Assembly (NCBI GenBank): GCA_022710715.1
Contig: JAKLGJ010000002.1
Location: 501,453 to 565,452, forward strand
Source: Candidatus Omnitrophota bacterium
Lineage (GTDB): Bacteria > Omnitrophota > Gorgyraeia > Gygaellales > Profunditerraquicolaceae
Direction of reading: 5' to 3'
DNA length: 64,000 bases
Part shown: positions 12,578 through 48,662 of the stretch, in pieces
How positions within the stretch are numbered: the stretch's first letter is position 1
How the letters are laid out: each line of letters starts with the position of its first letter
Notes under the pieces: generated by a model
Told to the model about the DNA's origin: nothing
Seen by the model: only the letters and a program-made list of their open reading frames with translations
Database searches by the model: none
Made by a program: the position numbers and the translations under genes

Positions 12578-13323
12578 GTGTTTTTAAAATTCTTTTCGGC
12601 ATTGAGGAAAAAGAGGTGCGGTCCTGCTGTGTGGTGATGCCGCTGATCGCTCCGGGTATTCTGGAGCAGTGCGGAGTGGGAAAGCTTGCCTGCGGTCGAT
12701 TATATGCTGCCGCCAGTAACAGCCATCTGACCGTGATCGCTGCCCGGGTGGGCGCGGGATTCGTCGGAGACGCCGTGCTCTATCTCAAAGATACCGGCTG
12801 CCGGACGGTTTTCTTATTCGGTTCCTGCGGGCTGGTCAAACAGACCGCGCGGCTGCACATCGGTGCGACGGTCGTTCCCTCGTCCTGTCGCGCCCAGGAA
12901 AGTTTTTCCCGGACGCTCGCAGGAGCGCGTATTCCGGCCGGGACCGTCTCGCCGGATGCGCGGCTCTACGCCGCCTTCAGGCGTTTTGCCGCCCGGAAAG
13001 CCGTGGGCGTCAGGTGCTTGACGGTTGCATCCCTGAAATTGGAAGAGCAGGCGCTGCCGGAATATCTCAAGGCAGGCATTGAAGCGGTGGATATGGAGTG
13101 TTCGGCTTTCTTTGCCGCCGCCGCGCATGCAGGATTGCGGTCGCTGGCGCTGTTTTACGCCGGCGATATCCTTAAAGTCAAACCGTTTTACCGCGAGCAG
13201 CGGGCTGCGGAGAGACATGCGCTGACAAGCGGTATACGCACCACGGCGGATTTATTGATCGGGTTCGCGGCAGAAGCGTCTGCGCACAATTACCAGGTGG
13301 GGGAAGGTCTACCGAAGAAATAG
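12574..13323 (+). CDS. PNP_UDP_1 phosphorylase-superfamily protein (MTA nucleosidase / futalosine hydrolase-like)
   Basis: 249 aa; fold-level resemblance only; ATGA overlap with upstream gene. Confidence 0.45.
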   Translation: MSVFKILFGIEEKEVRSCCVVMPLIAPGILEQCGVGKLACGRLYAAASNSHLTVIAARVGAGFVGDAVLYLKDTGCRTVFLFGSCGLVKQTARLHIGATVVPSSCRAQESFSRTLAGARIPAGTVSPDARLYAAFRRFAARKAVGVRCLTVASLKLEEQALPEYLKAGIEAVDMECSAFFAAAAHAGLRSLALFYAGDILKVKPFYREQRAAERHALTSGIRTTADLLIGFAAEASAHNYQVGEGLPKK

Positions 13324-14429
13324 CCCTGGGCAAATTCCACGCCCAGGGTAAGCAGGCAGGCGTACTCTTCCTGGGTTTCCACGCCTTCGGCGATCAGGCG
13401 GCTGTTAATCTTCCGGGAGAGATCGCAGATGACCTGGATCAGGCTTTGTTTAACGATATCCAGGTGCACGTTCCGGATAAGGCTCATATCGACTTTGATA
13501 AACTGCGGTTTTAATTCCGCAATCGATTTCAGACTGGCGTACCCTTCGCCCAGGTCGTCGATGACGATCATCACGCCCATGGGTTTCAGATCGTTCAAAT
13601 TGCTGGCCAGCCGGGTAAAGTTGGAGATGAAGGTGCGCTCGGTTATCTCCAAACAGATCTGGGAAGCAGGAATGGCGGAACCGGAGAGAAATTCCAGGTT
13701 TTTCACGTAATCCGAATTGATCACCGCCGGGTCGGTATTCAAAAACAACAACGCTTTCTTGACGAATCCGGCGGCGCGTTCTACTGCCAGGGAAAGGCAG
13801 AGCGAATCCAGCTGGAAAGACATGCCGGCTTCTTCCGCCAGCGCGAACAGATTGACCGGGTTTTCCAGGAAGGTGCCTTGCGGGCCTCTGGCCAGCGCTT
13901 CGTAGCCGAACGGTTCCTTGTTCTTCATGATCACGATCGGCTGAAAAAGAGTGCGGATGGATTTCTGTTCGATGATGGTGCGCAGCTGCTGAATTTTCTC
14001 GTTGCGCTCCTGCATGGTGAGGGAACCGGTGATATTCGCCGTCCGTTGCAGGATCGCTTTTATCCTGACCAGTATTTCTTCAAAGGGGAAATGTTTACCG
14101 ATATAATCCGCCACTCCCAGGTTAAAAGCCTCGATCTTGTCCAGGATCTTATCCTGGCAGGTGAGCATGATAATGGGGATATGGGTGGTGTGCAGATTTT
14201 CTTTGAGGGTTTTGCAGACTTCATGGCCGCTCATTCCCGGCATATTCAAATCAAGCAGCACCAGGTCGGGATTGAGCAGCCCGGCTTTTTCGATCCCTTC
14301 TTGAGGCAGGGCGGCGAGGACAACCCGGAATTTTGCGTTCTCCAGAGCGAAACGCATCATTTCGGCGAAATCTCTCTCGTCGTCAATAATCAGGATAAGC
14401 TTTTTGGTTTCCATAAGGGTAATCGCCAC
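13290..14429 (-). CDS. response regulator receiver + EAL domain (c-di-GMP phosphodiesterase)
   Basis: REC (LLDLNMPGMSG..), EAL motifs (EALAR, DDLGEGYAS, EGVET). Confidence 0.9.
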   Translation of the reverse strand: MAITLMETKKLILIIDDERDFAEMMRFALENAKFRVVLAALPQEGIEKAGLLNPDLVLLDLNMPGMSGHEVCKTLKENLHTTHIPIIMLTCQDKILDKIEAFNLGVADYIGKHFPFEEILVRIKAILQRTANITGSLTMQERNEKIQQLRTIIEQKSIRTLFQPIVIMKNKEPFGYEALARGPQGTFLENPVNLFALAEEAGMSFQLDSLCLSLAVERAAGFVKKALLFLNTDPAVINSDYVKNLEFLSGSAIPASQICLEITERTFISNFTRLASNLNDLKPMGVMIVIDDLGEGYASLKSIAELKPQFIKVDMSLIRNVHLDIVKQSLIQVICDLSRKINSRLIAEGVETQEEYACLLTLGVEFAQGYFFGRPSPTW

Positions 14430-23456: not shown

Positions 23457-23804
23457 ATGGCTGTCTGGAACTTTGTGGAGCGAAGGAAGTTCGTGCGGTA
23501 CGAGGTGAAATTCCCTTTACGCAACCTTGACCTCTACGCGAAGGTCAGCAAATTCTGCGCGACTAACGATATCAGCGCCAAAGGCATCGGCTGCATCTCT
23601 TCCGACGAAATGGCGGTGGGAACCCGCCTGCAGCTATCCCTGGATACGCCGGACAGCTCGGAACATGTCCTGATCAACGGTACGGTGGTCTGGTCGGTTC
23701 AGGTCGGTCCGAACCGGTATCGCGCGGGAATCGCGCTGGAAGACGGCAGTAACATCAAAGCCGTGCCGCTGGTATTGAAAGCGATCCAGACGCGGTATTA
23801 TTGA
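23457..23804 (+). CDS. PilZ-domain protein (c-di-GMP receptor type)
   Basis: RRKFVR ... DISAKGIG motifs. Confidence 0.7.
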   Translation: MAVWNFVERRKFVRYEVKFPLRNLDLYAKVSKFCATNDISAKGIGCISSDEMAVGTRLQLSLDTPDSSEHVLINGTVVWSVQVGPNRYRAGIALEDGSNIKAVPLVLKAIQTRYY

Positions 23805-23846: not shown

Positions 23847-24233
23847 GTGATTCTGGAAAGAGGTTCCGACCGCCGGCGTTTTCAGAGGTTAAAGCTGCAC
23901 ATGAGCGTGTATTTCCGCGTCGACGCGCCCATCTATGCCCGGGTATGGTTCGGCGACCAGGAAATGGAAGCGGACATGGTCGACATCAGCGAACAGGGCA
24001 TGGGTATTCGTACCCGCCACGATATCCCGTTATTAACCACGCTGCGTATCCGTTTTTCTCTTTTTAAATTGAACCGGCAGGGCGCGGTCGATTTCTCCGC
24101 TCCGTTTGAGATGGAAGGGGAGGTGCGTTCGAACATCTCCGGCGACGAGAAGGACCGCCGCTTAGGTATTTGTTTTATTCATCAGCAGGAGAGATTGGCT
24201 GCGGCAATCGGAGATTTTGCCAGCGCCGCGTAG
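23847..24233 (+). CDS. PilZ-domain protein, second tandem copy
   Basis: AAGAGG RBS, GTG start; DRRRFQR ... DISEQGMGI motifs. Confidence 0.65.
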   Translation: MILERGSDRRRFQRLKLHMSVYFRVDAPIYARVWFGDQEMEADMVDISEQGMGIRTRHDIPLLTTLRIRFSLFKLNRQGAVDFSAPFEMEGEVRSNISGDEKDRRLGICFIHQQERLAAAIGDFASAA

Positions 24234-24247: not shown

Positions 24248-24871
24248 TTACGCGCGGAAAGCATAGAGAGCAAAGCCCGCCCCGAACACCAGCAACAGAG
24301 CTGCGCAAACCCCCAGGATCATTTTGTAGACAGACAAAGAGATACACCGGCGGCTTTTGCTGATCGAAAAGGAAACAAAACTATACCAGCCGAGATCCGC
24401 CAGTATGTGCCCGCAGAAGAACACCGCGATTCCCGTCCAGCCGGCTTTCTGTGCGCCGAGCACCAGGCCGGCCCCGATGCTTAACCACCACACCGCCCAG
24501 TAAGGATTCAACAGACTCAAGGTGATGCCCATCCAGGCCAGATTGTTAGCTCCGGCAGAGGTTTCCAGCGCCGCCAGCGATACCGTTTTCAGGGAAAAAA
24601 GCAACCGCACGCCGAAGTACGCCAGCATCGCTGCGCCGGAAAATGATATGATTTTCAGCACGAGAGGCTGGTTCAGTATCCGGGCCAGGCCCAGCGCGAT
24701 GCAGGCGACCATGAACAACTCCACCAGCGCATGGCCCAGGGTGACCAGCGGTCCGGTTTTCGCGCCGCTGCGCGCGCTTTCGGCGATCACCGCGGTCAAC
24801 AGCGGCCCCGGCGCCAGCGCGCCGGACAAAGCGATAGTGAAAGAAAGCAAAAACAGCGATAAATAATGCAT
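24248..24871 (-). CDS. LysE/RhtB-family amino-acid exporter
   Basis: 207 aa, 6 TM; N-terminal LysE-type motif (ALAPGP). Confidence 0.7.
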   Translation of the reverse strand: MHYLSLFLLSFTIALSGALAPGPLLTAVIAESARSGAKTGPLVTLGHALVELFMVACIALGLARILNQPLVLKIISFSGAAMLAYFGVRLLFSLKTVSLAALETSAGANNLAWMGITLSLLNPYWAVWWLSIGAGLVLGAQKAGWTGIAVFFCGHILADLGWYSFVSFSISKSRRCISLSVYKMILGVCAALLLVFGAGFALYAFRA

Positions 24872-24927
24872 AGGGGTATTCTACAACAATTTTTCCCAAA
24901 CGGCAAAGAGTCTGTTATAATAAGGCC

Positions 24928-26151
24928 ATGGAACGGGTTAAACGCATCTTGATTATCTCGAGCGATAAGACGTTGCGCGACGTGCTGATGTTCTGTTTCG
25001 ACGGCTGGGGATATGAAGTGTTCCTGCAGGACGTCCCGGGGAACGACGTTAATCAGATCAAACGGATTTCTCCGGACGTGATCGTGGTTGACGTGCAAAC
25101 CGCGCGCAAGCCGCAGCTGGAGATCTGCCAGTTGCTCAAAGACGATTTTCTCACCGCGTTCATCCCCATCATTACCATTATCAATAAACGGCAGCTGCGC
25201 CAGCAATTGCTCGACATCCGCCAGGGCGTCGACGATTATCTGATCAAGCCGCCGGATCCGCTGGATCTGCGCATCCGCATCGAAATGGCTTTGAAGCGCT
25301 CCCAGTACAGCTATCACACCAACACGCTCACCGGGTTGCCCGGCGCGCGGATCATCGAAGAATGCGTCCGGGACAAGATCCACCAGGGTAAGCCGTTTTC
25401 CTTCGGTTACGTCGACATCGACAATTTTAAATTCTTCAACGACGCCTACGGGTATCACAAAGGCGATAAAGCGATCATGCAGGTCGCCTATATGCTTTAC
25501 ACGGTGATCAAAGAAGCCGGCAACCCGGAGGATTTTATCGGGCATATCGGCGGCGACGATTTTGTTTTTGTCACCACGCCGGAGAAATACGCGGCGATCT
25601 GCCGCAGCTTCATCGAGCAGTTCGACACGCTTATGCCGTTTCATTATTCGGCGGAAGATCGTGATCAGGGATTCGTGATGGCCCGGGACCGCACGCATAA
25701 GGTGCGCAAGCTTCCGTTGATGAGTTTATCCATTGCCGTGGTCAACTGCAGCGAGTCCCAGCCGTTCAAGAGCCTGGTAGAGGTCAGCGACAGAGTGGCG
25801 GAGATCAAGGGATATTTGAAAGCCCAGCCGGGCAGCAAATTCATGGCGGATCGCAGAAGCGGCGATGCCGTTAACGGCGCAGAGCCGCAATCTGCCGGTC
25901 CGGCGCCTGCGGAAAAGCGCTCCCGGACGCATAGGCCGCTGGGACAGATTCTTATCGAGCGCAAATGTATTACTGTCGAGCAGCTGGACGAGGCGTTGCG
26001 CGTCAACTGGCATCGCGGGGTAGCCCTGGGCGAGATACTCAAGGAATGCGGATATATCAAAGATCCGGATCTGCAAAGCGCTCTGGAAGCGCAAAAAGCA
26101 CTTTCTGCGCCGGGTGGCGAAATCGTCCCGCGGCCGCAGATGCTTAATTAA
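24928..26151 (+). CDS. REC + GGDEF-like (GGDDF variant) + C-terminal tandem MshEN-like motif protein
   Basis: REC domain; GGDEF fold with HIGGDDF in place of GGDEF/GGEEF; C-terminal LGQILIERKCITVEQLDEAL and LGEILKECGYIKDPDLQSAL repeats. Confidence 0.75.
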   Translation: MERVKRILIISSDKTLRDVLMFCFDGWGYEVFLQDVPGNDVNQIKRISPDVIVVDVQTARKPQLEICQLLKDDFLTAFIPIITIINKRQLRQQLLDIRQGVDDYLIKPPDPLDLRIRIEMALKRSQYSYHTNTLTGLPGARIIEECVRDKIHQGKPFSFGYVDIDNFKFFNDAYGYHKGDKAIMQVAYMLYTVIKEAGNPEDFIGHIGGDDFVFVTTPEKYAAICRSFIEQFDTLMPFHYSAEDRDQGFVMARDRTHKVRKLPLMSLSIAVVNCSESQPFKSLVEVSDRVAEIKGYLKAQPGSKFMADRRSGDAVNGAEPQSAGPAPAEKRSRTHRPLGQILIERKCITVEQLDEALRVNWHRGVALGEILKECGYIKDPDLQSALEAQKALSAPGGEIVPRPQMLN

Positions 26152-27025: not shown

Positions 27026-30000
27026 ATGAAGATGATGCGCAGAGTTATGGCAGTGGTGGTGGGATTTTGTTTACTCCTGGAGCAGACCGGATTCGCTCAA
27101 GTCGCTCCGCAATTCAATGTCCCGGCATACCTCAACGGTTATGTGGCTGCGGATAAATTCCGTCCGGTTCAATTGCGTTCGATCTCTCTGGGCCAGGATG
27201 CCCAGGATCTGAACCTCTATCTCGACGCCGGAGACGCCAGGAATATCTCTTCCCGTCAGGCCAAGGAATCCGCGCGCCAGCTTCTGGAATATTTCCGCGT
27301 CGGCCTCGCTTTGCCCAACCAGTCTTTCTGGGTGAATCTGCGCCCGGATGCGCAAGACAAGATCCTGGACATGTCGCTGGAAAGAACCGACATGGGAAAA
27401 ATTCTGCTGGAAGCCGATCTGCAACTTAAGAAAGATCTGGCTGCCTTCACTTCTCCGGATACCCGCGAGGGCAAGCAGTACTGGAACCGGCTTTACGCCA
27501 GAGCCGAGCAGATCTTCGGACCGGACAATATCACCATTCCTACGATTACCCGGCCCTGGATCGTTCCGGGCGAGATCATCCTGCGCCAGAGCCAGGAGAG
27601 CGCCTACATTTATAAGGCTACCCTGAAAGTGATGCTCGAGCAGGATTGGTTCGCGCAGCCGGATGCCGCGCTGGGCATCAGCGCCGCAGTCATGGCTGAC
27701 AAGCGGGTTCAGGAACTTAACGCTTATTCATCCGAATTGATCCGCACGCATATCCTTCCTAAATTAACCGCGGAAGTCAACTCTTCGCGCAAGTACGCCG
27801 CTTTGCGCCAGGTCTATTATTCGCTCATTCTGGCGCAATGGTACAAGCGGCAATTTCAGGGCAAAGACAACGCCTATGCGAGGCGCATCGACAGCCGCGA
27901 TCTGTCCGGCCTGGAATCGCGACACGCGTGGTCAAAAACCACCGCTTTTAATGCTTACAAGAAATCATTTTCCGAGGGTGAATATAAGAAAGAGGAAATG
28001 GTACGCAGCGGCAAAAATGTGATCGTGCACCGGTATTTCAGCGGCGGCGTGAGCGTGGTGAACACCATGGCCGCGCAGAACAGCGTGAGTAACCAGGTAT
28101 TCACCAGCAACAACGCGGCATTGACCGAACCGTTGATCGCTTATTCCGCCCAGACCGACGAGGTCACTCCCGCGCAGCAGAGCGAGGTCGCGGTCAAGGA
28201 TACTGAAACCCAGGAAGAACCGGCGGGCCGCCTGGAAAAAGGCTGGGTCATTGCCAACCATATCCTGGTTTCTTTCCACGTGGCGTTCATCGTTTCTCTG
28301 TTGAGCCTGCCTGTAGCCGAGATGTTCAGCAAATGGGATGTCCTGCAATACGTGTTTGCCAGCGCGGAAACTCCTTTGAGCGCGTTGTTGTGGTATATCG
28401 GCTGGCACAGCGGCATCGCCCTGCACGAAATGGGCCATTACCTCAAGGCGGTGAAGACGTCCGCTTTGAGAGCCGAACTGCTCCCGGCAGCAGAGGCAAA
28501 GATGCGCCAGGGTTTTCTGGGTAGAATGAAGTGGTACGCAGAGATGTTCGTGAAAATTCCCTGGGGTAAATTCGAAGGGGTGAAGAAAGTAGGCAGAGGC
28601 ATTGCCGCTAATTATTATCCGGATGCGCCATTCAACGCAGCAGTTGCCGCAGAAGGACCCCGTTTCAGCGGGAAAGTAGCCAAGCTTACCCTGCCTGCAG
28701 GCATAGGGTTACTGGCGGCTGGTCTCTTTGCCCAGACTGTGCCGGCTTTTGCCGGTATAGGCGATGCTCTGGTTTTCCTGGGCAGAATGTTTTTCGGTAT
28801 CGGCGCGATCTCTTTTCTCGATTACAAAATGGCTGATCCCGGTAAGCTTGCCGAGTTTGACGAGCGCGAGCGCAAAGCCGCGGAAAAAGCCAAGGCTGTT
28901 ACCGCAGAAACAGTGCAGGCCGAGCAAATCTCCTGGAAGGATCAGATGGGCGACGTTAAGAAGAAAATGCTCCGGCAGCGCATTCAGGAAGCGGAAACCC
29001 GCTGGGGCGTATCTATTCGCGCTCCCTGGGGTTGGCGCAACTCCGGTATGGGCGGACGCCATACCGAGAAAGAATACCCGCAGAGCAACATTTCCATGCA
29101 GGAAGCCATGTTCATTCCTTTAAGCGCTAAAACCTACGAAGACGCGCAGCGCATGGTCGTAGAGCTGCAAACCCGGTTGCATCAAATCATCAATAAAGTC
29201 GAAGGCGCCCGCGTTGAAGGTATCGGTCTGGAAGGCGGTCTGGCTACGTATATTGAAAAGGATCCCAGCGATCTGGTTCCTGAACAGCGCTTATGGCGCT
29301 TGATGGTGCAGGCAATCAAAGAGTCGGGTTTTAAACCCGGCGAGGATGTGGTTCTGGCATTCGACCCGGCGGCAAGCGAGTTGGAAATCGCCTATCGCGA
29401 AAAGTACGAACAGCCTGATGCGGTAGGTATGTATCTGTTCTGGCGCGACGCCAACCAGGTAGTGATGAGCCGCGATCAGTTGATGGATCTGTATGATTGG
29501 GCGATCGAGAACAATATTCCTTTGATCTCCGGCGAGGATTTATTCGCGGAGGACGATTATGAAGGATGGAAGCTGGCCATGGCCAAGTATGGCGATGTGA
29601 TGTTCATCATCGGAGACGATGTGGCTACTACTAATGCCCACACCGTAGAATTCCTCGCGGACGAAAAGCTGATAAATACCCTGTTGGTCAAAGCCAATCA
29701 GATCGGCTCATTAGCCGAGACATTGCTGGCTATGTTGACCGGCCTGGGCAAGGGGTTGGAAATGGTGGTTTCCCACCGTTCCAAGTCTCCCAATGACGAT
29801 ATGGAAGCGCAGGTAGCATTGTCGGTTAACGCCGTAGGGTTAAAAGCCGGCGGCGGCGCCAATACCGAGAGATTGGTCAAGTACGGCGCTATTATCAAGA
29901 TGATGAAAGAAGCCATCCTGGATGCGGCCATGAAAGACAGCAGGGGAGTGACCAACAAGGAGCTGGAGCAGCAGGTGACCGCGGTTATTGATCAGCTGCA

Positions 30001-31270
30001 GATCACCAGGATCGTCGCGTACGAGGAATCGACCAATGCGGGTATCCCGACCGCAGGTGCGACGGTGAGCTTCGGCATTCCCGGGAGCTTGAGGTACGAG
30101 AGTCTTTTCAAGATGTCGGGTTCCACTCCGCTGGGCACCAGCGCCGGCACCGGAGAAGCGATCCATCTGATCGATTCTAACTTTGCCCCGAATGAACTGA
30201 CCGCGCAGTATCCCGACCTGTTCGACAAAAGCGCCACCGGAACGTATTCGTTCAAAAAGTCGGTTGACGATAATCAGATTATCGCCAAAGACGATGCCGT
30301 CCTTACGGAGTTTTATAAGAGGGCGAACCGTTACAGCGGCAAAGGCGTATTGAACGCGGTTTCCAACGTGGAAAAGATACTGGCGGAGAAGTTTGTCGGC
30401 AAAAAGTTATCGGAGTTGGGCGGCATTGAGAATATAGATAAGGTTTTGCTGGAAGCGGAATTCGAATTAGGCGTGGCGCGCGGTTTGATCAGTCGCGATG
30501 CGCCGATGGATGAAAAGATCAAGTTCATGCAGCGCAAAGGTAATATCGGCATGAATGCGCTTCTTTCCACATCCCTGGCCTTGGGCCGCATGGTTACGGC
30601 AATGCAGGGTAAGGAATTGTGGCAGACTTTGCGCGAGACGATGGCGACGACCATCGCCCGCACTATCGCCGAAAGCGAAGGCGTCAGCGCGCAGGAGCTG
30701 GAGCAGAACTATACCTTCGAACAGCTGGTCGAAAAGTTGCAGAAGTTCGAACAGGCGCGCAAGGAGCGCAAAGACGAACGTCCGTTGTATGCGTATCTGG
30801 AAGCGGCGTTGCCGGTATACGGCGAGGCTGACGGCGGGTCGCAGGTGCAGGACGGCGGATTGAAGACCGATGCGCAGGAAGTCGTCGAGCAGCAGACCGT
30901 GGCGGTTGAGCAGCAGGCTGCTGCGGCGAATCAGGCTCCGGAAGAGCTCGGCGGCGTGGATCTGCGCGCTTTGCCGGTGTCGGTCAAGCCGGTCGATGCA
31001 TCGCGGGTCGTTCCGGTTAATTCCGCGCTGCTGAAAATGTCCCTCCAGGACCTGGATAAGACCTGGACGGATTTGCGCGGCAAAGTGGAAGGGCAAGCGG
31101 TCCCGTACCAGCAGCTCAAAGAATACGTGGCTGCCTGCAAGTCCCGCGCTGATGCCGCAAAGCAGCTGGCGCAGGTGCGCCGTTACATCGGCGAACTGCT
31201 CAAGCTCGAGGAAGAGAGGGCTATCGCATCCTCTTCCGAGATGCATGAGATTGTCGGTATTATCGGCTAA
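27026..31270 (+). CDS. giant secreted/membrane protein A: signal peptide + conserved N-domain + 4-TM region with HEMGH motif + circularly permuted enolase-like domain + Q/E/A-rich tail
   Basis: AAAGGAGAGG RBS; 1414 aa; enolase barrel motifs (AFDPAASE, IGDDVATTN, LLVKANQIGSL, VVSHRS, LVKYG) precede enolase N-domain motifs (ITRIVAYEESTNAGIPT.., PLGTSAGTGEAIHL, RYSGKGVLNAV). Confidence 0.85.
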   Translation: MKMMRRVMAVVVGFCLLLEQTGFAQVAPQFNVPAYLNGYVAADKFRPVQLRSISLGQDAQDLNLYLDAGDARNISSRQAKESARQLLEYFRVGLALPNQSFWVNLRPDAQDKILDMSLERTDMGKILLEADLQLKKDLAAFTSPDTREGKQYWNRLYARAEQIFGPDNITIPTITRPWIVPGEIILRQSQESAYIYKATLKVMLEQDWFAQPDAALGISAAVMADKRVQELNAYSSELIRTHILPKLTAEVNSSRKYAALRQVYYSLILAQWYKRQFQGKDNAYARRIDSRDLSGLESRHAWSKTTAFNAYKKSFSEGEYKKEEMVRSGKNVIVHRYFSGGVSVVNTMAAQNSVSNQVFTSNNAALTEPLIAYSAQTDEVTPAQQSEVAVKDTETQEEPAGRLEKGWVIANHILVSFHVAFIVSLLSLPVAEMFSKWDVLQYVFASAETPLSALLWYIGWHSGIALHEMGHYLKAVKTSALRAELLPAAEAKMRQGFLGRMKWYAEMFVKIPWGKFEGVKKVGRGIAANYYPDAPFNAAVAAEGPRFSGKVAKLTLPAGIGLLAAGLFAQTVPAFAGIGDALVFLGRMFFGIGAISFLDYKMADPGKLAEFDERERKAAEKAKAVTAETVQAEQISWKDQMGDVKKKMLRQRIQEAETRWGVSIRAPWGWRNSGMGGRHTEKEYPQSNISMQEAMFIPLSAKTYEDAQRMVVELQTRLHQIINKVEGARVEGIGLEGGLATYIEKDPSDLVPEQRLWRLMVQAIKESGFKPGEDVVLAFDPAASELEIAYREKYEQPDAVGMYLFWRDANQVVMSRDQLMDLYDWAIENNIPLISGEDLFAEDDYEGWKLAMAKYGDVMFIIGDDVATTNAHTVEFLADEKLINTLLVKANQIGSLAETLLAMLTGLGKGLEMVVSHRSKSPNDDMEAQVALSVNAVGLKAGGGANTERLVKYGAIIKMMKEAILDAAMKDSRGVTNKELEQQVTAVIDQLQITRIVAYEESTNAGIPTAGATVSFGIPGSLRYESLFKMSGSTPLGTSAGTGEAIHLIDSNFAPNELTAQYPDLFDKSATGTYSFKKSVDDNQIIAKDDAVLTEFYKRANRYSGKGVLNAVSNVEKILAEKFVGKKLSELGGIENIDKVLLEAEFELGVARGLISRDAPMDEKIKFMQRKGNIGMNALLSTSLALGRMVTAMQGKELWQTLRETMATTIARTIAESEGVSAQELEQNYTFEQLVEKLQKFEQARKERKDERPLYAYLEAALPVYGEADGGSQVQDGGLKTDAQEVVEQQTVAVEQQAAAANQAPEELGGVDLRALPVSVKPVDASRVVPVNSALLKMSLQDLDKTWTDLRGKVEGQAVPYQQLKEYVAACKSRADAAKQLAQVRRYIGELLKLEEERAIASSSEMHEIVGIIG

Positions 31271-31368
31271 ACGGCCGGTAGATCAATGATGTTCAAGGAA
31301 GCCACGGTTCTGGATTGAGCGATCAGTCGAGCACCGTGGCTTTCTGCTCTGTGGAGAGGCGTGTGATC

Positions 31369-34300
31369 ATGCATAGAGGCATCGGATCCATCCGAAAAAC
31401 AGTCTCCATTCTAACCAGCCTGGTTCTGCTGCTGCAGACGGCAGGCTTCGCTCAAGTTTTTTCTCCGTCCGCGGTCAATGCGGATGTTCCCGCATCACGC
31501 CTGTCCGGCTGCTGCCGGCCCATGCATCTGCGCTGGCTGGCAGTGGATCCGGATAACCGGTCATTCAACGTCATTCTGGACACCGGAGACGCAACCGGTA
31601 TTTCCCCCCGACGCCTGCGCGAAGAATCTCAAAAACTCATCGAATATTTCCTCATCGGTCTGGTCCTGCCCAACAGCTCGTTCTGGGTAAATCTACGCCC
31701 CGACGCGCCTTTGCGCGTTATTGATCCTTTGCTGGAGCGCACCGACGTCGGCAGGATACTGCTGGAAGCCGATGTGCGTTTGAAAAAAGATCTGGCCGCA
31801 TATACGTCTCCCGCCACCGCGCAAGGGCGGCGTTACTGGGATGCGTTGTATAAACGGGCTGCAGAGCTGTTTGGTCCGGCGCAGATAACCGTTTCCACCG
31901 CTTCCCGTCCCTGGATCGTGCCCGGCGAGATCATCATCGGCGAAGGCGAACAGGGAGCGTATGTGTATAAGGCGACTCTGGACGTGCGCTTGGAAGACGA
32001 TTGGATCGGCCGTTCGGATCCTGTGTTGAAACAGCTCAACGCGTACGGCGCGCAATTGCTCAAGCGGGAAATCCTGCCCGGGCTGATCAAAGAAGTGAAT
32101 ACCTCGGAGAAATACGCTGCTCTGCGCCAGGTGTACTATTCGCTGATCCTGGCGCAATGGTTCAAACTGCATCCGGCTCAGGCCGGCGCTTCCCTGTCCG
32201 CGATCGTCGACGCAGCAGATCCCGTCGGACTGGCTTCGAGCATTCCCTGGTCCAAGAATACATTTACTGCCGAATATCGCCGGTCCCTGCAGGCGGGCGA
32301 ATACAACCAGAAAGAATACGTGCCGACTTCCGCGGGCTTGAGTCTGCGTCAGTACGCCAGCGGAGGCGCGCTTTTCAACGGCAGCAGCCGGGTTCTTTCG
32401 GTGTCGCCGGGATTGGGCCGGGCAGTTCTGCATGCGCCGGCGCCGTACCGGCAGGCGCTCGAAGTTCCTTTTCCGCAGGCGGTGCGCGTTGTGCTTTCCC
32501 GTCGGTCAAACGTTGACACGCATGCGGATGAGCCGGATGGCGGTACCCAGGCGCAGGAAGAGATACGCATTATGGCATTGTACGGCGGTTTGCAGCGGTT
32601 GACGAATTTTGTGCTGAAAGAATCCCGCCCGTCGGCAGCGCGATTGCTGCCGGATATCGCCAGGTCGGGGCACGCGCAGATGGTCGCCGCGGTAGTGCCC
32701 GAACTGATGCGCGCCGCGGCTTCCAGTAACCGGCCCGATATCCGGGCGGCTGCCAATGAATGCCTTGCCGCGGTCCGGTCCCCGGCTCAGACGGCTGCAC
32801 TCGAGCCGGTTGCGCCGGAGTCGTCTCTGCAGCCGGCTGCCGTTTCCGCGGTAGACCGGGAAAACCTCGCCGGTTTTCTCCACGCGATGGGCGGCCGGGA
32901 TATCAACGCAGCCATTGCCGCATGTGCGGCCATGCGCGCATTGTTCAAAGAGAAGCCGGGTTTGTGGGCAGACCGGCAGGTCGTTGAAGCTGTCGGGCCT
33001 GTTCTGAAAAGCAGTTTTCCGAGAGCGCGATTGGCGCTGATGGAAGCCGTTGAACAAAGTATCAGCGCTCCGGTCAGCGATGAGCTTCTTTTCCTGGTTT
33101 TAAAAGGAATGAATGATCGCGACGACCAGGTGAGCGAAAGAGCGCTTTTCGCGTTCGCGCGCATACTCGCCGCGGAGCCGCGCCCGGGTCATACCGGTGA
33201 GGCGCTTGCCCGGATCATGGATGAGCCGGAATCTTTCGCTATTGCCGGGTTGGTATTCGACCTTATCGCCAGAAAGGGCGCCGGCGAGCTTGAACCGCTC
33301 TGGCAGTTGCACGCCGGAAACCGGGCGCACTTGCGCCGGGCGCTGGAGCAGAATCTCGCCGATGCCGCTTTTCCGGGATTGTATACGCTAAACGACGTTT
33401 CCTGGCGCGGGCTGGCCGAACAACTGATTGAATACAACCGTCTTACCGCCGATGCGGACGCGCCGCTGCGTTCGGTGATCGTCAAGATGCTCCTGGCCCG
33501 CGAAGGCGCGGTGTCTTTCGGCCGGATGAAATGGCTGGTGGCTGAATCGCTTTCGTATTTCCACGTCAATCTCGCGCATGCGCTGGAAAAAACGCGTTCG
33601 GTCGCCCTGCGCCGGCAGCTGATCAAGGCTTCCGGCGTGAGTACCGCGGACAGCATCGAAGTGTTGCGCACCCGGGCCATCCGGTTCGCGGCCATCGCGG
33701 ACAACGATACGAGTTTCGATTCTTCCAGAGGCGTGGCCGGACGTATTCGCAGCGATATCCATCTGCGTCTTTCTCCCCAGGACTTGCGCGCGGTCAGAGC
33801 CTACCGCACATTCCTCGACGGAGACGCTTCCGAACTGACCGCTCTGGGGTATACGATCAGTGAATCCGACCGCGTCCCGCCGGAACGCAAGGCGCGGGTG
33901 GCCGCGGCCGCCGAAGATCTGCTGGACGCGCTGGAGGAGATATTCGGCGAAGAGAGCGGGAAAGGGGTGAGGGCGTATTTCGCTCTGGCGAAAAAGATGT
34001 TCCGGGACCATCCGGTTCTCGCGAATGAGATCCAGGAAATTCTTGATTTTTCCGGAAAGAAAGATCTGGCGTATCTGGAGCGGATCAATGCGGCCAGGAG
34101 CCTTCTGGCGGAGGTCGGCCGAACCATGCGCTCGACGGAACTGATGATGAGTATCGGGCTGGATAACGCGCTGGAGAACCTGTATTACGGGGGCGTTGCC
34201 GCTTTCGAACCGTCGGTGGATTACGCCGATGATCTGCAGACGCTGAAGGTTGTGCGCAGCCTGATGGAAGCGGTGCGGTTGAACGGTTACTGTCGGGAAG

Positions 34301-36342
34301 AGATCGCGATGATTGTTTTGCAGGTCGAAGCGGTGCTGGCGAGAGGGATACGCAATCAGGAAGACCGGCTGGAGATCTATGCGCTGTACCGCCGGCTGGA
34401 GCGGATGATCAAAGGTATTTCCCAGGAGACGATCAACGATTATCAGGAGATCGCGCAGCGCCTGGGCGCTGCCGCGGGCAAAGCCGATGCTCCCTGGGTC
34501 GGCGAATTCTCCGCTCAACTGATGCGCCGGGACGTGGTGTACTGGCTGGCCAGCGTGACGGAGAAAGCGATGCAGTCGGCCATGTCTTCCGCGGGGATCA
34601 GCGGCTGGCAGGTGATCCAGGAAGGCGTCGCGCGGGGAAGGATCAAAGTGATCGTCGATAATGAGGATTTCGCCGGCCTCAAGGATGATGAAATAGCGGT
34701 CGCCGCGCAGCTTCCCGACGACAGCCGGTTTCTTATTCATGCCAGAGGGATCATTACCACCGGGGTGGAATGTTTGCTGTCTCATCCCGCAGTCCGGGCG
34801 CGGCAGCAGAAAACGGTTTTCGTCTCCGCTCCATCTCTGGATGAGGCAAAAAAATACGCCGGGCAATGGGTAGAGCTGTCAGCGCAGGGAGAGCAGGTGA
34901 TCATCCGGCCTCAAGCTGAAGCCGAGGCGCAGCGGGAAGCTTCGATCGTGCCGAAGAAAAAGCCGGCCGGGGCGATTGCACCGGTGGAGCCTGACCGCGC
35001 CTGGAGTGCGGCAGTGGTTCTCCCGTCGGATTATACGCCGCAGCGGGTAGGTAATAAAGCGTATACCTTGAGCCGGATACCGGATAATCTTATCGCCGGG
35101 CAGAGAACGGCCCGTCATTTCAGTTTGAGCTTCGCTTTTTTCGATGCGGTGTTGGCGCTTGAGATTAATCGCGCCCGCAAACAGGAGTTGCAGGTTTTGC
35201 AGCAACGGGTGATCCAGGCAGCCCGGGATCAGGATGTGCGTGAGGATTTACGGCGTATGCGGGCTTTGGTGGAAGAGCTCGAGCTGCCGCAGCAAACGCT
35301 GGGAGAAATCGTCGCCACCGCGACGGAGTTGTTTGGCCGGGAAACGCCGCTTTTCCTGCGCTCCAGCACCAATGCCGAAGACCTGGCGGATTATTCGGGC
35401 GCAGGGGTGTATGATTCTTTCGGCGCGGTAACGCTTTCTCCGCCGGACATCGCCCGCCATGTCAAAAAGGTATGGGCTTCAGTCTGGAATGAGAAAGCGT
35501 TTTTCGACCGCCAGGCGAATGCTATCGATCACGCCGCGGTGCGGCCGGCAGTCTTGATCCAGGAGATGCTGAATCCGGAGTATTCCTTTGTCATCCATAC
35601 CCGGTCGCCGGTCAACGGCAATGACGGGGCGGTGCTCATCGAAGCGGTGCAGGGATTCGGGGAAACGCTGGTCAGCGGCCTGGACGCTTACGCCGGGCAG
35701 GCGTATCGTTTCAGCGTGGATAAGTCTACCGGCGAGCTCAAGTTGATCTCGTTCGCGAATAAGAGCCGCAAGATCGTTGTGCGCGCCGGCCGTTTCAACG
35801 ATGCCGCCGCGGATTATCACGATGACTGGCTGGTGACGCCTGAAGGACGGCAACTTCTGCAGCGCATAGGCATGGCCGCGATCAAACTCGCGGACGCCGC
35901 AGGCGCCGCCCAGGATATCGAGGGCGTGATCGTCAATGACCGGGACGGGCGCACAGTCGGATTCGTCCAGACGCGCGCGCAGGTTATGCTGAATGCGGAC
36001 GGCGGCAATCTTCTGGGCGGAGTGGATCTGCGCCTGTTATCCGCCGACAATGCCGCCGCGGCCGGCGCGCAGATCCCGCGGGCGCGCGGGATATTCCTGG
36101 AGCGGTCCGCCGCCGAATGCGACGGGATCTGTCGCGCTCTGCTTGCCGGATTGGAACGTGACCCGTCGTCGCTGGAAGGATTGCGGGAATACGTGGTGGA
36201 GATGGGCGTCCGGGCGGACGCAGAGCAGCGGTTGAAAGACGTGTCCATCTGGTTGATGAACCGGCTGCGCATGGAAGAGGCGGCTGTGATGAAAACTCCC
36301 GCGCCGCTGCGGGAAGCGCTTGTCTGCCTCGGCGCGAGGTAA
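31369..36342 (+). CDS. giant secreted protein B (paralog of A): signal peptide + conserved N-domain + HEAT/ARM-like helical repeats + C-terminal PEP-utilizing-enzyme ATP-grasp (PPDK_N-like) domain
   Basis: GGAGAGG RBS then ATG 31369 (ORF opens 31315); N-domain clearly homologous to A (e.g. SFWVNLRPDA, RPWIVPGEII, KYAALRQVYYSLILAQW identical); C-terminus has LRSSTNAEDLADYSGAG and VLIQEMLNPEYSFVIHTRSPVNGNDGAVLIEAVQGFGETLVSG. Confidence 0.85.
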   Translation: MHRGIGSIRKTVSILTSLVLLLQTAGFAQVFSPSAVNADVPASRLSGCCRPMHLRWLAVDPDNRSFNVILDTGDATGISPRRLREESQKLIEYFLIGLVLPNSSFWVNLRPDAPLRVIDPLLERTDVGRILLEADVRLKKDLAAYTSPATAQGRRYWDALYKRAAELFGPAQITVSTASRPWIVPGEIIIGEGEQGAYVYKATLDVRLEDDWIGRSDPVLKQLNAYGAQLLKREILPGLIKEVNTSEKYAALRQVYYSLILAQWFKLHPAQAGASLSAIVDAADPVGLASSIPWSKNTFTAEYRRSLQAGEYNQKEYVPTSAGLSLRQYASGGALFNGSSRVLSVSPGLGRAVLHAPAPYRQALEVPFPQAVRVVLSRRSNVDTHADEPDGGTQAQEEIRIMALYGGLQRLTNFVLKESRPSAARLLPDIARSGHAQMVAAVVPELMRAAASSNRPDIRAAANECLAAVRSPAQTAALEPVAPESSLQPAAVSAVDRENLAGFLHAMGGRDINAAIAACAAMRALFKEKPGLWADRQVVEAVGPVLKSSFPRARLALMEAVEQSISAPVSDELLFLVLKGMNDRDDQVSERALFAFARILAAEPRPGHTGEALARIMDEPESFAIAGLVFDLIARKGAGELEPLWQLHAGNRAHLRRALEQNLADAAFPGLYTLNDVSWRGLAEQLIEYNRLTADADAPLRSVIVKMLLAREGAVSFGRMKWLVAESLSYFHVNLAHALEKTRSVALRRQLIKASGVSTADSIEVLRTRAIRFAAIADNDTSFDSSRGVAGRIRSDIHLRLSPQDLRAVRAYRTFLDGDASELTALGYTISESDRVPPERKARVAAAAEDLLDALEEIFGEESGKGVRAYFALAKKMFRDHPVLANEIQEILDFSGKKDLAYLERINAARSLLAEVGRTMRSTELMMSIGLDNALENLYYGGVAAFEPSVDYADDLQTLKVVRSLMEAVRLNGYCREEIAMIVLQVEAVLARGIRNQEDRLEIYALYRRLERMIKGISQETINDYQEIAQRLGAAAGKADAPWVGEFSAQLMRRDVVYWLASVTEKAMQSAMSSAGISGWQVIQEGVARGRIKVIVDNEDFAGLKDDEIAVAAQLPDDSRFLIHARGIITTGVECLLSHPAVRARQQKTVFVSAPSLDEAKKYAGQWVELSAQGEQVIIRPQAEAEAQREASIVPKKKPAGAIAPVEPDRAWSAAVVLPSDYTPQRVGNKAYTLSRIPDNLIAGQRTARHFSLSFAFFDAVLALEINRARKQELQVLQQRVIQAARDQDVREDLRRMRALVEELELPQQTLGEIVATATELFGRETPLFLRSSTNAEDLADYSGAGVYDSFGAVTLSPPDIARHVKKVWASVWNEKAFFDRQANAIDHAAVRPAVLIQEMLNPEYSFVIHTRSPVNGNDGAVLIEAVQGFGETLVSGLDAYAGQAYRFSVDKSTGELKLISFANKSRKIVVRAGRFNDAAADYHDDWLVTPEGRQLLQRIGMAAIKLADAAGAAQDIEGVIVNDRDGRTVGFVQTRAQVMLNADGGNLLGGVDLRLLSADNAAAAGAQIPRARGIFLERSAAECDGICRALLAGLERDPSSLEGLREYVVEMGVRADAEQRLKDVSIWLMNRLRMEEAAVMKTPAPLREALVCLGAR

Positions 36343-36821: not shown

Positions 36822-38297
36822 ATGATGGAGACGATCAAGAGAGAAGAAGTGGAGCGTTATCTGGAGCGGGGCAGGGATTTTATCGACGATGCCCTGATCG
36901 AACGCCTGCTGGAAGAGAATAAACAGCCCGATGCGCGGGCTGTGCGGGAGATCATTGCCCGGGCCCTGGAGATCAAGACGCTGGAGCCTGCGCAAACCGC
37001 GGCGTTATTGCAGGTGCAGGATGATGCGCTCTGGGAAGAGATTTTCCAGGCCGCCGCGAAGATCAAGACCAAAGTGTATGATAACCGGGTGGTGACGTTT
37101 GCGCCTTTGTACGCCGCGAATAAGTGCGTGAATAATTGTTCTTACTGCGGGTTCAGGCGGGAGAATCCGGCGATCCAGCGCCGGGTGCTGGATTTCGACG
37201 CGATCCGGGAAGAAACGCGCGTGCTTGCCGGCAAGCTTGGCCACAAACGCCTGATTTTCGTGTGCGGCGAACATCCGGAGTCCGGGGCGGATTATATCGC
37301 CGAGAGCATGCGCACCATTTACAGCGTGAAAGAAAAAGTGCGCAACGGACGCGGAGAGATCCGCAGGGTCAATGTCAATGCCGCGCCGATGAGCGTGGGC
37401 GATCTGATCAAGATCAAAGACGCCGGCATCGGCACCTTTCAGGTTTTTCAGGAAACCTATCATCACGCCACCTATGCCCGGGTGCATCCCGCCGGAACGG
37501 TCAAATCGGATTTCGGCTGGCGGCTGTACGCGTTGCACCGGGCGATGGAAGCCGGTATCGACGACGTGGCGATCGGCGCTCTGTTCGGTTTGTACGACTG
37601 GAAATTCGAGGTTATGGGCATGCTCTTCCACGCCCGGGACCTGGAAAAGCGTTTCGGCATCGGTCCGCACACGGTTTCCATGCCCCGGATCGAGCCGGCA
37701 GCCAACACGCCGTTTTGCGACCACGCGCCCCACCGGGTTAGCGACCGCGATTTCAAACGCCTGATCGCGGTGCTGCGTCTGTCTATTCCGTATGCCGGGA
37801 TGATCATTACCTGCCGGGAGCGCCCGGGGTTTATTCGGGATGTTATCCCGATGTGCACGCAGCGGGACGCTTCCAGCCGCATCGGCGTGGGCGCGTATAC
37901 TGGCCAGCAGCAAGAGCAGCAGCAGGATATCCAGCAATTCATCCTGGGAGATACGCGTTCCCTGGATGAAGTTATCCGCGAGCTGGCCTCTCTGGGGTAT
38001 ATCACTTCATTCTGCACCGCAGGGTACCGCTGCGGCCGCACCGGCAAGAACATCATGACCCTGCTGCGCACCGGGAAAGAAGGCTGTTTCTGCAAATTGA
38101 ACGCCATCCTGACCTTCCAGGAATGGCTGGAAGATTTTGCCAGCCGGGAAACCAGGGAGATCGGCGAGCGGATCATCGCTCAAGAGATCGCGCAGGTTAC
38201 CGAGCGGGTGCCCGCGTACTTTACGCCGGAGCTGCTGGAGAAAATGCTGGAATTTCACCGCCGGATCAAATCCGGAGAACGGGATCTGTGTTTTTAG
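36822..38297 (+). CDS. hydG: [FeFe]-hydrogenase maturase HydG (radical SAM tyrosine lyase)
   Basis: 491 aa; CVNNCSYC radical SAM motif; ThiH/HydG-like length and C-terminal Cys cluster. Confidence 0.8.
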   Translation: MMETIKREEVERYLERGRDFIDDALIERLLEENKQPDARAVREIIARALEIKTLEPAQTAALLQVQDDALWEEIFQAAAKIKTKVYDNRVVTFAPLYAANKCVNNCSYCGFRRENPAIQRRVLDFDAIREETRVLAGKLGHKRLIFVCGEHPESGADYIAESMRTIYSVKEKVRNGRGEIRRVNVNAAPMSVGDLIKIKDAGIGTFQVFQETYHHATYARVHPAGTVKSDFGWRLYALHRAMEAGIDDVAIGALFGLYDWKFEVMGMLFHARDLEKRFGIGPHTVSMPRIEPAANTPFCDHAPHRVSDRDFKRLIAVLRLSIPYAGMIITCRERPGFIRDVIPMCTQRDASSRIGVGAYTGQQQEQQQDIQQFILGDTRSLDEVIRELASLGYITSFCTAGYRCGRTGKNIMTLLRTGKEGCFCKLNAILTFQEWLEDFASRETREIGERIIAQEIAQVTERVPAYFTPELLEKMLEFHRRIKSGERDLCF

Positions 38298-38312
38298 GAA
38301 GGATTGGTATTC

Positions 38313-39572: not shown

Positions 39573-39693
39573 TTTTTTCGGAAAATGTGATATATTTTAA
39601 ATCTCTACTGCAAAAAGTGAAGGACTCCTTCCTGATTGCTTAGTCTCAAATTCATCCCTTTACAGTGAACGGAAAGACGAGAGAAGGTCGGCA

Positions 39694-40164
39694 ATGGAAC
39701 AGAAGATTTCTATTGAAATCAAAAATTTGGTAGATAAGTGGAAGAGCAAAGAGGGCAACCTGATCATGATCCTCCACGAGATCCAGAATCATCACGGGTA
39801 TGTCCCGCGCGAGCTTTCTCTGGAGCTTTCCCAGATGCTCGACGTTCCTCTGGCGCGCATCTACGAAGTGATCACCTTCTATAATTTCTTCAAACTCACT
39901 CCCCCGGGCAAACACAAGATCGCCGTTTGCATGGGCACGGCCTGTTATCTCAAGGGCGGCCAGGACCTGATCAACGAAGTCAAGAACATTCTGCATATCG
40001 AACCCGGACAGACCACCAAAGACGGACAATACTATCTGGATATGGTGCGTTGCCTGGGATGTTGCGGTCTGGCGCCGGTAATGATGATAGACGAGAAAGT
40101 ATACGGAAAAGTCAAGAAGAGCGAAATAATGGATATTCTCTCCAAGCACGGGAGCACAGATTAA
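39694..40164 (+). CDS. NuoE/HndA-like thioredoxin-fold [2Fe-2S] subunit
   Basis: CMGTACYLKG...CLGCCGLAP. Confidence 0.85.
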   Translation: MEQKISIEIKNLVDKWKSKEGNLIMILHEIQNHHGYVPRELSLELSQMLDVPLARIYEVITFYNFFKLTPPGKHKIAVCMGTACYLKGGQDLINEVKNILHIEPGQTTKDGQYYLDMVRCLGCCGLAPVMMIDEKVYGKVKKSEIMDILSKHGSTD

Positions 40165-40167
40165 ACC

Positions 40168-40518
40168 ATGGATAAACTGACCCCAGAGGCAATCGACAGG
40201 ATATTCAAACAGAACCGGCAGCAGTCCGCCAACTGGATCAAGGTCGGGATGAGCACCTGCGGCATTGCCGCCGGCGCGGATGAAGTGTATGCCACCCTGG
40301 TCGAAGAAATAAAGAAACGCAATATACAGGTTACGGTCAAGAAATGCGGTTGCCTGGGTATGTGCCACGCCGAACCCCTGGTGGAAGTCTGCGTGGACGG
40401 CATGCCCACCGTGATCTACGGCCGGGTGAACAAGGAAATCGCGGTAAAGATACTGGATAAACACGTTAATTCCAAAGCATTGTTAAACGATTATATTTTC
40501 GATCTCGAGACCAAATAA
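40168..40518 (+). CDS. HndB-like small [2Fe-2S] ferredoxin-domain subunit
   Basis: STCGIAAGA...CGCLGMCHAEP. Confidence 0.7.
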   Translation: MDKLTPEAIDRIFKQNRQQSANWIKVGMSTCGIAAGADEVYATLVEEIKKRNIQVTVKKCGCLGMCHAEPLVEVCVDGMPTVIYGRVNKEIAVKILDKHVNSKALLNDYIFDLETK

Positions 40519-40520
40519 TC

Positions 40521-42260: not shown

Positions 42261-42263
42261 CCT

Positions 42264-48183: not shown

Positions 48184-48184
48184 A

Positions 48185-48661: not shown

Positions 48662-48662
48662 C

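Follow-up and report, generated by a model that had tools for sequence, protein, structure and literature searches.

In a 64,000-nucleotide stretch of the genome of a Candidatus Omnitrophota bacterium (positions 501,453 to 565,452 of contig JAKLGJ010000002.1; this whole stretch is referred to below as the window), a gene on the plus strand encodes a protein in which a receiver (REC) domain is followed by a GGDEF-fold domain with the variant motif GGDDF and, after a linker, by a C-terminal tail that resembles the cyclic di-GMP (c-di-GMP)-binding domain known as MshEN. The open reading frame (ORF) had been reported at 24928-26151 in an earlier reading of the letters alone (the sequence-only reading) and is present exactly there; hidden Markov models (HMMs), PDB searches and structure prediction agree with the three-domain organisation that was proposed for it, namely a REC domain, a GGDEF fold bearing GGDDF and an MshEN-like tail. 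A protein that is 100% identical is found in public databases under the name 'diguanylate cyclase [Candidatus Omnitrophota bacterium]'. An antisense ORF of 300 amino acids (aa) at 24796-25698 on the minus strand we regard as spurious, since the plus-strand gene has strong homology support. The parts of the gene are as follows.

24928..26151, plus strand: whole gene, 407 aa, ATG start; REC, GGDDF-type GGDEF domain, linker and MshEN_N tail
24940..25299, plus strand: atypical REC, residues 5-124; match to Pfam Response_reg (PF00072) at residues 7-118
25090..25092, plus strand: codon of Asp55, the putative phospho-acceptor, which aligns with PleD D53 and is invariant in 120/120 homologues
25315..25860, plus strand: GGDEF-fold domain of the GGDDF clade, residues 130-311
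25522..25533, plus strand: position of the RxxD inhibitory site (I-site), here NPED, residues 199-202, five residues upstream of GGDDF, as is R359-D362 in PleD
25549..25563, plus strand: GGDDF signature, residues 208-212, within HIGGDDF (206-212)
25861..25929, plus strand: linker, residues 312-334, disordered and unconserved; predicted local distance difference test (pLDDT) below 50 over residues 305-332
25936..26094, plus strand: MshEN_N unit, residues 337-389 (53 residues); motif I 337-360, spacer WHRGV 361-365, motif II 366-389

We compared this protein (hereafter the target) with 120 full-length homologues that are 59-70% identical to it, and counts out of 120 given below refer to this set. 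Mean identity to the target is 75% in the receiver, which is the most conserved domain of the family, 67% and 57% in the N-terminal and C-terminal halves of the GGDEF domain, 12% in the linker, 56% in the MshEN_N tail and 6% in the residues after the tail. In conservation the tail thus equals the C-terminal half of the GGDEF domain and is constrained in the same way as the catalytic domain, to which an unconstrained tether joins it. A full-length AlphaFold2 (AF2) model, made with an alignment of 59 family sequences (mean pLDDT 80), places REC at residues 1-129, the GGDEF fold at 130-300, disorder at 305-332 and four helices at 338-393, and its top Foldseek matches are WspR, PleD and DgcR. The linker, measured from R310 to P337, varies between 21 and 36 residues across the homologues and is about 25 residues long in the target.

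The C-terminal tail as an MshEN_N unit

The two tandem MshEN-type motifs quoted in the sequence-only reading sit at residues 338-357 and 367-389, and four lines of comparison (NF053729, PDB sequences, structure and the alignment with NfrB) bear them out as more than a chance match. The NCBIfam model NF053729 ('c-di-GMP_motif, MshE-related'; cutoff 38) scores 56.3 bits in the whole protein, aligning 53 of its 53 positions, and 65.6 bits (E=2.5e-18), 27 bits over the cutoff, with the tail alone. A PDB search with the tail alone returns only MshEN/GSPII domains (PilF, 4.9e-8; VcMshE, PDB 5HTL, 0.003), with residues 6-64 in register with residues 6-64 of 5HTL. When 28 family tails are combined in a profile, PilF reaches 3.2e-15 and 5HTL 4.2e-8, the top 14 matches all being MshEN/GSPII. 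By BLASTP the tail aligns with residues 484-544 of Escherichia coli NfrB at 45% identity (E=1e-11). The helices predicted by AF2 span residues 338-344, 350-363, 367-373 and 379-393, and the tail-only model has a pLDDT of 84.8. The tail model fits c-di-GMP-bound 5HTL and PilF GSPII-B at 0.8 Å over 56-57 columns (TMq 0.80-0.82), compared with 1.9-2.4 Å for the non-binding XpsE and Xanthomonas PilB-N; Foldseek assigns the likeness to 5HTL a probability of 1.00, with an E-value of only 0.02, the domain being small.

What stands of the MshEN assignment is the two-motif unit and not a full MshEN domain. PF05157 (MshEN) has no match on the target because this model describes MshEN_C, which in a longer relative (P0123) is found at 394-477, after the motif at 341-393; the tail of the target consists of MshEN_N only, without the MshEN_C (T2SSE_N1) subdomain. 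The longer relatives are forms of about 480 aa (P0123, P0125, P0128, P0134 and P0139) that carry REC-GGDDF and a full MshEN domain, resemble the N-terminus of PilB (positions 2-138) and NfrB (471-607), have the signature 'PLGQ…HW' in common with the target and keep RLG in motif II. We take the target family to be a shortened derivative that would have lost MshEN_C and the motif-II Arg. The tail is present in about 18 clusters among the representatives, and the tail-bearing loci found in a one-genome-per-species scan (L008, L009, L014, L015 and L020) are all from Omnitrophota or unclassified metagenome-assembled genomes; P0125 is named as Omnitrophota. The family appears to be conserved across Candidatus Omnitrophota, and in this largely uncultured group a receiver-cyclase-receptor protein kept at about 60% identity is likely to be a central signalling node.

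MshEN domains bind c-di-GMP through two 24-residue motifs, RLGxxhhxxGhhxxxxLxxxLxxQ, separated by a 5-residue spacer, with mutants of the hydrophobic and Gly positions losing binding more than 10-fold and mutants of the Arg and Gln positions less than 5-fold (Wang 2016). In the target family the Gly at position 3 of both motifs (G339 and G368) is kept in 120/120 homologues, and the Leu contacts are kept in 104 (L338), 120 (L353), 120 (L357), 102 (L367), 103 (L382) and 117 (L386) of the 120. Motif I opens with an invariant Pro (P337), which follows a Lys or Arg, as in the 'RPLG' of NfrB.

Several observations weigh against binding by the tail. The strict and relaxed regular expressions of Wang 2016 find no match on it; the assignment of the tail rests instead on HMM, profile and structure comparison. 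The Arg at position 1 (R9 and R38 in VcMshE) is missing from both motifs, replaced by P337 in motif I and by A366 in motif II (mostly Ile, Val or Ala in the family); at the end of motif I, position 24, Gln has given way to N360 in the target and to His in the family, motif II keeping its Q389; and the spacer, normally variable, is here a conserved W-[KR]-R-G, with W361 in 119/120. The GSPII-A domain of PilF, a non-binder, has a Q-to-H change in motif I and has lost the Arg of motif II, and restoring the consensus in GSPII-A is insufficient for binding (PMC12002112). The likeness of the AF2 model to 5HTL may also stem in part from training on 5HTL.

The site of GSPII-A is in addition blocked by an N-capped, extended helix alpha-1 and by inter-subdomain contacts (PMC12002112); that Pro337 starts helix alpha-1 in the target, and that there is no C-subdomain, would argue against a block of this type. 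NfrB binds c-di-GMP with a dissociation constant of about 1 µM, and mutations of its L490 and G491, both within the segment that aligns with the tail, impair its function (PMC8669469). All three motif-I deviations of the target tail are found in NfrB, yet NfrB binds c-di-GMP. Judging from the sequence comparisons and the model, we think that the tail probably binds c-di-GMP.

The GGDDF domain and its clade

Translation and alignment with PleD confirm the HIGGDDF signature picked out in the sequence-only reading, with Asp in place of the fourth-position Glu, and in a phmmer search against the PDB GGDDF falls column for column on the GGEEF of PleD. Two GGDEF HMMs match the domain, PF00990 at 51.8 bits (cutoff 23.8; residues 131-232) and TIGR00254 at 50.5 bits (cutoff 37.4), both aligning the N-terminal two-thirds only (for PF00990, profile positions 3-106 of 161). 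AF2 predicts a complete GGDEF fold over residues 130-300 that carries an additional beta-hairpin at 249-263, and Foldseek matches isolated GGDEF domains to it over 171-181 columns (TMt 0.6-0.72).

Cyclases are commonly called active or dead by their GG[D/E]EF motif, and the target departs from the active-site signature [G/A/S]G[D/E]E[F/Y] in having Asp at the fourth position. The GGDDF motif is nevertheless invariant in 120/120 close homologues. Equally invariant are D163, K168, N171, D172 and D180, which correspond to D327, K332, N335, D336 and D344 of PleD, as well as H206 (PleD R366), K298 (approximately PleD K442), K294, R309 and R310. The Arg of the RxxD site, which many but not all GGDEF domains have, is missing in the target, and position 199 is Asn in 105 and Arg in 1 of the 120 homologues.

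When 1.84 billion cluster representatives were searched exhaustively with HMMER, the target proved to belong to a much larger clade. Matches at E<=1e-30 comprise 848 clusters, span REC and GGDEF at 30-45% identity and score 180-520 bits, as against about 62 bits for PleD. Among the best 150 of these 848 clusters the motif is GGDDF in 131 and AGDDF in 16 (147 together), and the guanine-recognising Asn and Asp are kept in nearly all of the 150 representatives. In a 31-sequence sample of the wider clade D163, K168, N171, D172, H206 and G208-F212 are invariant and D180 is kept in at least 90%, and the markers by which we define the clade, H-x-[GA]-G-D-D-F together with L134, L137, P138, Y240, R255, P263, K298 and R310, invariant in the clade alignment, are all present in the target. 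The one-genome-per-species scan gave more than 600 matches to GH[IV]GGDDF, and the clade includes members from Omnitrophota, Elusimicrobiota, Chloroflexota, Planctomycetota, Nitrospirota, Gemmatimonadota, Acidobacteriota, Clostridia and Actinomycetota, with cultured carriers in the last of these (Micromonospora, Salinispora and Actinoplanes).

The majority of the clade are REC-GGDDF proteins of about 310 aa, and their commonest neighbour is a histidine kinase (28/79 loci). The clade core is also found fused to EAL (P0149), to REC and an HD-GYP-type phosphodiesterase (P0157), to hybrid kinases (P0140) and to MshEN. The histidine kinase neighbours, together with the EAL, HD-GYP-type and MshEN fusions, place the clade in c-di-GMP circuitry. 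A search of the PDB with the clade profile returned no solved clade member, its alignments all stopping at the GGDEF hairpin. The beta-hairpin insertion of the clade, at target residues 249-263 (25672-25716), precedes a 'SIAVV' strand, with Y240, R255 and P263 invariant; a C-terminal 'PGSxYLxDRR' motif is also conserved, and no GGDEF HMM or PDB sequence aligns with either the motif or the hairpin.

We read GGDDF as a signature of this clade and not as decay. Every substrate- and metal-binding position is strictly kept in a huge clade of response regulators that lack any other output, which is the pattern expected of an enzyme. Consistent with this notion, GSU1937 of Geobacter sulfurreducens, which has a GGDDF motif, is catalytically active (PMC8835794). 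There are also points on the other side. The fourth residue of the motif has been described as a cross-dimer catalytic base (PMC8835794), and the shorter Asp at this position could impair catalysis; the counterpart of PleD R366 is His; the C-terminal half has diverged so far that neither the Pfam and TIGRFAM models nor any PDB sequence align with it; and PA3258, a GGDDF-EAL protein, gave no cyclase phenotype. GSU1937 is the only GGDDF enzyme that we found tested in the literature, and the handful of mentions of GGDDF there also includes Bordetella and Streptomyces proteins. On the whole we lean towards a catalytically competent GGDDF domain.

The suggestion in the sequence-only reading that the domain may be inactive or a binder is right as to the Asp-for-Glu change, but the case for inactivity is weakened by the invariant GGDDF, its status as a clade signature, the kept catalytic positions and the active GSU1937. 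With GGDDF and all the substrate-binding residues strictly kept in hundreds of clusters from many phyla, it seems that many GGDDF proteins now dismissed as degenerate are genuine enzymes, or at the least a functional class of their own, and the clade is arguably a more consequential lead than the target protein.

A candidate self-sensing cyclase and its alternatives

The receiver of the target scores 28.6 bits with Pfam, just below the gathering score of 30.2; with NCBIfam response-regulator models the alignment covers residues 5-134, and the AF2 model shows a (beta-alpha)5 fold. In addition to the invariant Asp55, T83 is kept in 107/120 homologues and K107 in 118/120. By the offset of the NCBIfam alignment, the acidic pair after beta-1 (E9-D10-E11 in PhoB) corresponds to S11-S12-D13, so that one acidic residue remains nearby. 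The loss of the canonical acidic pair makes phosphorylation uncertain, a point against the cyclase model proposed below. Several long forms have lost the phospho-Asp itself, with Ser (P0139, P0142 and P0163) or Glu (P0134) in its place, and the receiver seems to be eroding in the MshEN-tailed branch. No kinase gene lies beside the target homologues in five sampled gene contexts.

We infer catalysis by the GGDDF domain, c-di-GMP binding by the tail and coupling between the two, and propose, with confidence that is evenly divided, that the target is a cytoplasmic, self-sensing diguanylate cyclase whose GGDDF core would make c-di-GMP and whose MshEN_N tail would sense it. Dimerisation mediated by REC would bring two GGDDF domains together, and the paired domains would make c-di-GMP with Asp replacing Glu at the fourth position. 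The tethered four-helix MshEN_N unit would bind one c-di-GMP, standing in for the missing I-site, and by sensing the product or the ambient pool would feed back on the enzyme or on a partner, in either direction. Since the acidic pocket of the receiver is degraded (S-S-D) and there is no adjacent kinase, sensing of c-di-GMP by the tail may be a main regulatory input. Any regulation of the cyclase by the tail is putative, the full-length model having a predicted template-modelling score (pTM) of 0.59.

Known proteins resemble the target in parts. PleD, WspR and DgcR, its best PDB sequence and structure matches, have REC followed by a GGDEF fold, and the metal-binding Asp and the equivalents of K332, N335 and D344 are kept in the target; the target differs in having GGDDF rather than GGEEF or GGDEF, His for R366, no RxxD I-site, an extra beta-hairpin in the C-terminal half, an atypical acidic pocket and an added MshEN_N unit. 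GSU1937, likened here by motif and not by clade placement, has GGDDF and, when assayed with biosensors in E. coli, made cyclic GMP-AMP (cGAMP) as well as c-di-GMP (PMC8835794), but it has an N-terminal transmembrane domain, no REC, no MshEN and the Ser diagnostic of cGAMP synthases (Hypr) at the position of D180. In NfrB, a c-di-GMP-activated glycosyltransferase, a C-terminal MshEN module regulates an enzyme in the same polypeptide, as is proposed for the target, and 'RPLGQIL' and the three motif-I deviations are common to both tails; NfrB differs in its full MshEN (N and C subdomains), its canonical RLG in motif II and its partner, which is a glycosyltransferase and not a cyclase. The N-domain of VcMshE (5HTL) and GSPII-B/C of Thermus PilF have the same two-motif, 53-residue, four-helix c-di-GMP site, whereas there the unit is N-terminal and followed by MshEN_C and a T2SSE ATPase, and the two motifs still have their Arg (position 1) and Gln (position 24).

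MshEN has been described in fusions with REC, HD-GYP, adenylate cyclase, CheA, CheX and glycosyltransferase domains, among others. Among those in Supplementary Table 4 of Wang 2016 are MXAN_2809 (MshEN-HD-GYP-REC-DUF4388), MXAN_7396 ((MshEN_N)2-REC-ACyc) and Bd2402 (REC-MshEN_N-UNK), which like the target combine MshEN or MshEN_N with REC and with a nucleotide-signalling enzyme; these have no GGDEF, whereas in the target the receptor is fused to the would-be synthase of its own ligand. No GGDEF fusion appears in that table, and a literature search for GGDEF-MshEN fusions and 'IGGDDF'-type strings found no description of one. A synthase fused to a high-affinity receptor for its own product is an arrangement that we did not find described for MshEN domains, and if the proposal is true the target would offer a simple way to study feedback where the I-site is missing.

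The target might instead be a receptor or adaptor and not an enzyme, with a dead GGDDF domain that binds GTP or serves as a scaffold, a tail that reads c-di-GMP and a signal passed on through protein contacts. The departure from GG[DE]EF at the described catalytic base and the absence of a cyclase phenotype for PA3258 both favour this explanation, as do the change of R366 to His, the change of an N-terminal 'NRR' to 'PGA/PGN', the diverged C-terminal half and the atypical receiver without an adjacent kinase. However, degenerate receptor GGDEF domains (PelD, FimX-type) usually lose their metal- and base-binding residues, and here these are invariant across a huge clade, which consists mostly of simple REC-GGDDF proteins, about 310 aa long, that lack any further output domain and often have a kinase as neighbour, the pattern to be expected of an enzymatic output; the activity of the GSU1937 GGDDF domain argues in the same direction. 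We regard a dead domain as unlikely. It is also rather improbable, in our judgement, that the protein is a cyclase whose tail binds no c-di-GMP and serves for docking or dimerisation, in the manner of the PilF GSPII-A 'landing pad', tethering a partner such as a PilZ protein. Both Arg residues are gone and Gln has become His or Asn, losses of the kind seen in GSPII-A, a non-binder; MshEN domains that have degenerated are known to act in protein binding (PDB 7LKM, the Xanthomonas PilB-N/PilZ complex); and PilZ genes adjoin, two of them upstream of the target and a STAS-PilZ gene at the homologous loci L004/L005. Set against this are the margin by which NF053729 is cleared, a model that the window's degenerate MshEN domains fail, the invariance or near-invariance of both Gly residues and all Leu contacts, the better fit of the tail model to ligand-bound structures than to non-binders, and the binding of c-di-GMP by NfrB with the same motif-I variant.

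That the GGDDF domain makes a different nucleotide, for example cGAMP as in Hypr enzymes or a cyclic oligonucleotide as with the GGDD motif of Cas10, we consider highly improbable. In favour of it, GSU1937, the one GGDDF enzyme to have been characterised, synthesises cGAMP as a Hypr enzyme, Pfam gives a weak match to Cas10-Cmr2_palm2 (E=0.21), and cGAMP, according to Wang 2016, is another ligand that MshEN can bind. Where Hypr enzymes have their diagnostic Ser, at the position of PleD D344, the target has D180, which is invariant in 120/120 homologues; Asp is found there in nearly all clade representatives, in which N171 is kept as well, and the fusions of the clade are to c-di-GMP-specific EAL and HD-GYP-type domains. 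We rejected the cGAMP-synthase reading on the strength of the missing Ser, and the Cas10-type reading because the match is not significant.

Returning to the self-sensing cyclase, one can join it to the wider clade in a broader reading, which we offer tentatively and hold to be doubtful as a whole. GH[IV]GGDDF would then mark a major active cyclase lineage with an active-site solution of its own (an Asp base, His for R366 and the extra beta-hairpin), and Omnitrophota would have captured an NfrB-like receptor and trimmed it to a 53-residue core that replaces the I-site, giving a cyclase that senses its own product. The family-specific spacer Trp might compensate for the lost Arg stacking, and the receiver might have drifted to a phosphorylation-independent scaffold.

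Gene neighbourhood and other features of the window

The following features of the window bear on c-di-GMP or on type IV pili.

23457..23804, plus strand: PilZ protein 1, 115 aa; Pfam PilZ 43 bits, RKFVR and DISAKG intact
23847..24233, plus strand: PilZ protein 2, 128 aa; Pfam PilZ 45.6 bits, RRFQR and DISEQG intact
13290-14429, minus strand: REC-EAL protein with EAL, DDLGEG and EGVE motifs
48167-62082: type IV pilus cluster
57176-59020: PilB, MshEN (PF05157 match) and T2SSE
60297-61142: stand-alone MshEN protein, with a PF05157 match, inside the pilus cluster

The neighbours named in the sequence-only reading (two PilZ proteins, REC-EAL, PilB with MshEN and the stand-alone MshEN protein) all exist. 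Of the dense c-di-GMP network that it saw around the pilus genes, the genes are there but the link to the pilus is loose. More than 22 kb, with two giant ORFs and hydrogenase genes, separates the target from the pilus genes, and in five distinct contexts sampled around homologues there are no pilus genes, no shared operon and no kinase. NF053729 scores only 32.3 bits on the PilB N-terminus and 21.8 on the stand-alone MshEN protein, both below the cutoff of 38, and PilB has Glu for both critical glycines (E19 and E48) and Lys for L29. By published criteria both proteins look like non-binders, and the pilus ATPase PilB is probably not a direct c-di-GMP receptor through its MshEN site. Of the c-di-GMP-motif matches in the window, that of the target tail is the best.

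Genes for c-di-GMP proteins recur beside members of the target family: the two PilZ genes in the window, a STAS-PilZ gene 3 bp downstream of the homologue in L004/L005, and a PAS-GGDEF-HD gene directly upstream in L006. In L006 a canonical GGEEF protein with an RxxD site adjoins the homologue, which indicates that ordinary cyclases coexist with the target family. The 160-aa ORF downstream of the target is not conserved.

Upstream of the target, in 24893-24927, there is a sigma-70-like site (TTCCCA, a 17-nt spacer and TATAAT with an upstream TG) that ends 6 nt before the ATG at 24928 and lies in a 56-bp divergent gap shared with an opposite-strand LysE-family gene. Its position hints at a very short or absent leader, and the consensus may not be that of Omnitrophota. 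An Rfam scan found no c-di-GMP riboswitch or other Rfam family in the window.

The C-terminal half of the stand-alone MshEN protein (60717-61139) resembles PilZ weakly (PF07238; E=0.0044; 17.8 bits, cutoff 22.5), and its RESER and DISQNA resemble RxxxR and DxSxxG; the protein, at the end of the pilus operon, may be a fusion of a degenerate MshEN with a PilZ-like domain, reminiscent of Xanthomonas PilB-N/PilZ. At 46213-47307 on the minus strand a ComFB-CheR_N-CheR methyltransferase fusion is encoded. ComFB is a recently established family of c-di-NMP receptors, and the ComFB-CheR architecture has already been mentioned for Omnitrophota (PMC12448109); the fusion is likely to be another c-di-GMP input in the window, into chemotaxis methylation.

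Two adjacent giant ORFs downstream of the target both bear glycolysis-type enzyme domains. The first (27026-31270, plus strand, 1414 aa) starts with a hydrophobic N-terminus and carries an Enolase_C TIM-barrel at 686-962, with an Enolase_N fragment at 1090-1143 after Enolase_C and not before it, an order that is unusual or permuted. The second (31315-36342, plus strand, 1675 aa) has, towards its C-terminus, a phosphohistidine-like domain (GWD1_pHisD) at 1098-1204 and an ATP-binding domain (PPDK_N) at 1295-1560, preceded by about 1100 residues without a domain match. Between the target and the pilus cluster, at 36822-44018 on the plus strand, lies an [FeFe]-hydrogenase and maturation gene set that encodes a radical-SAM/BATS protein, HydF, two thioredoxin-like [2Fe-2S] ferredoxins, a Nuo51-type flavoprotein and the hydrogenase large subunit. 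Within the pilus cluster, at 51170-52963 on the plus strand, PilM and PilN are fused in a single protein of 597 aa (PilM_2 at 45-408, PilN at 510-593).

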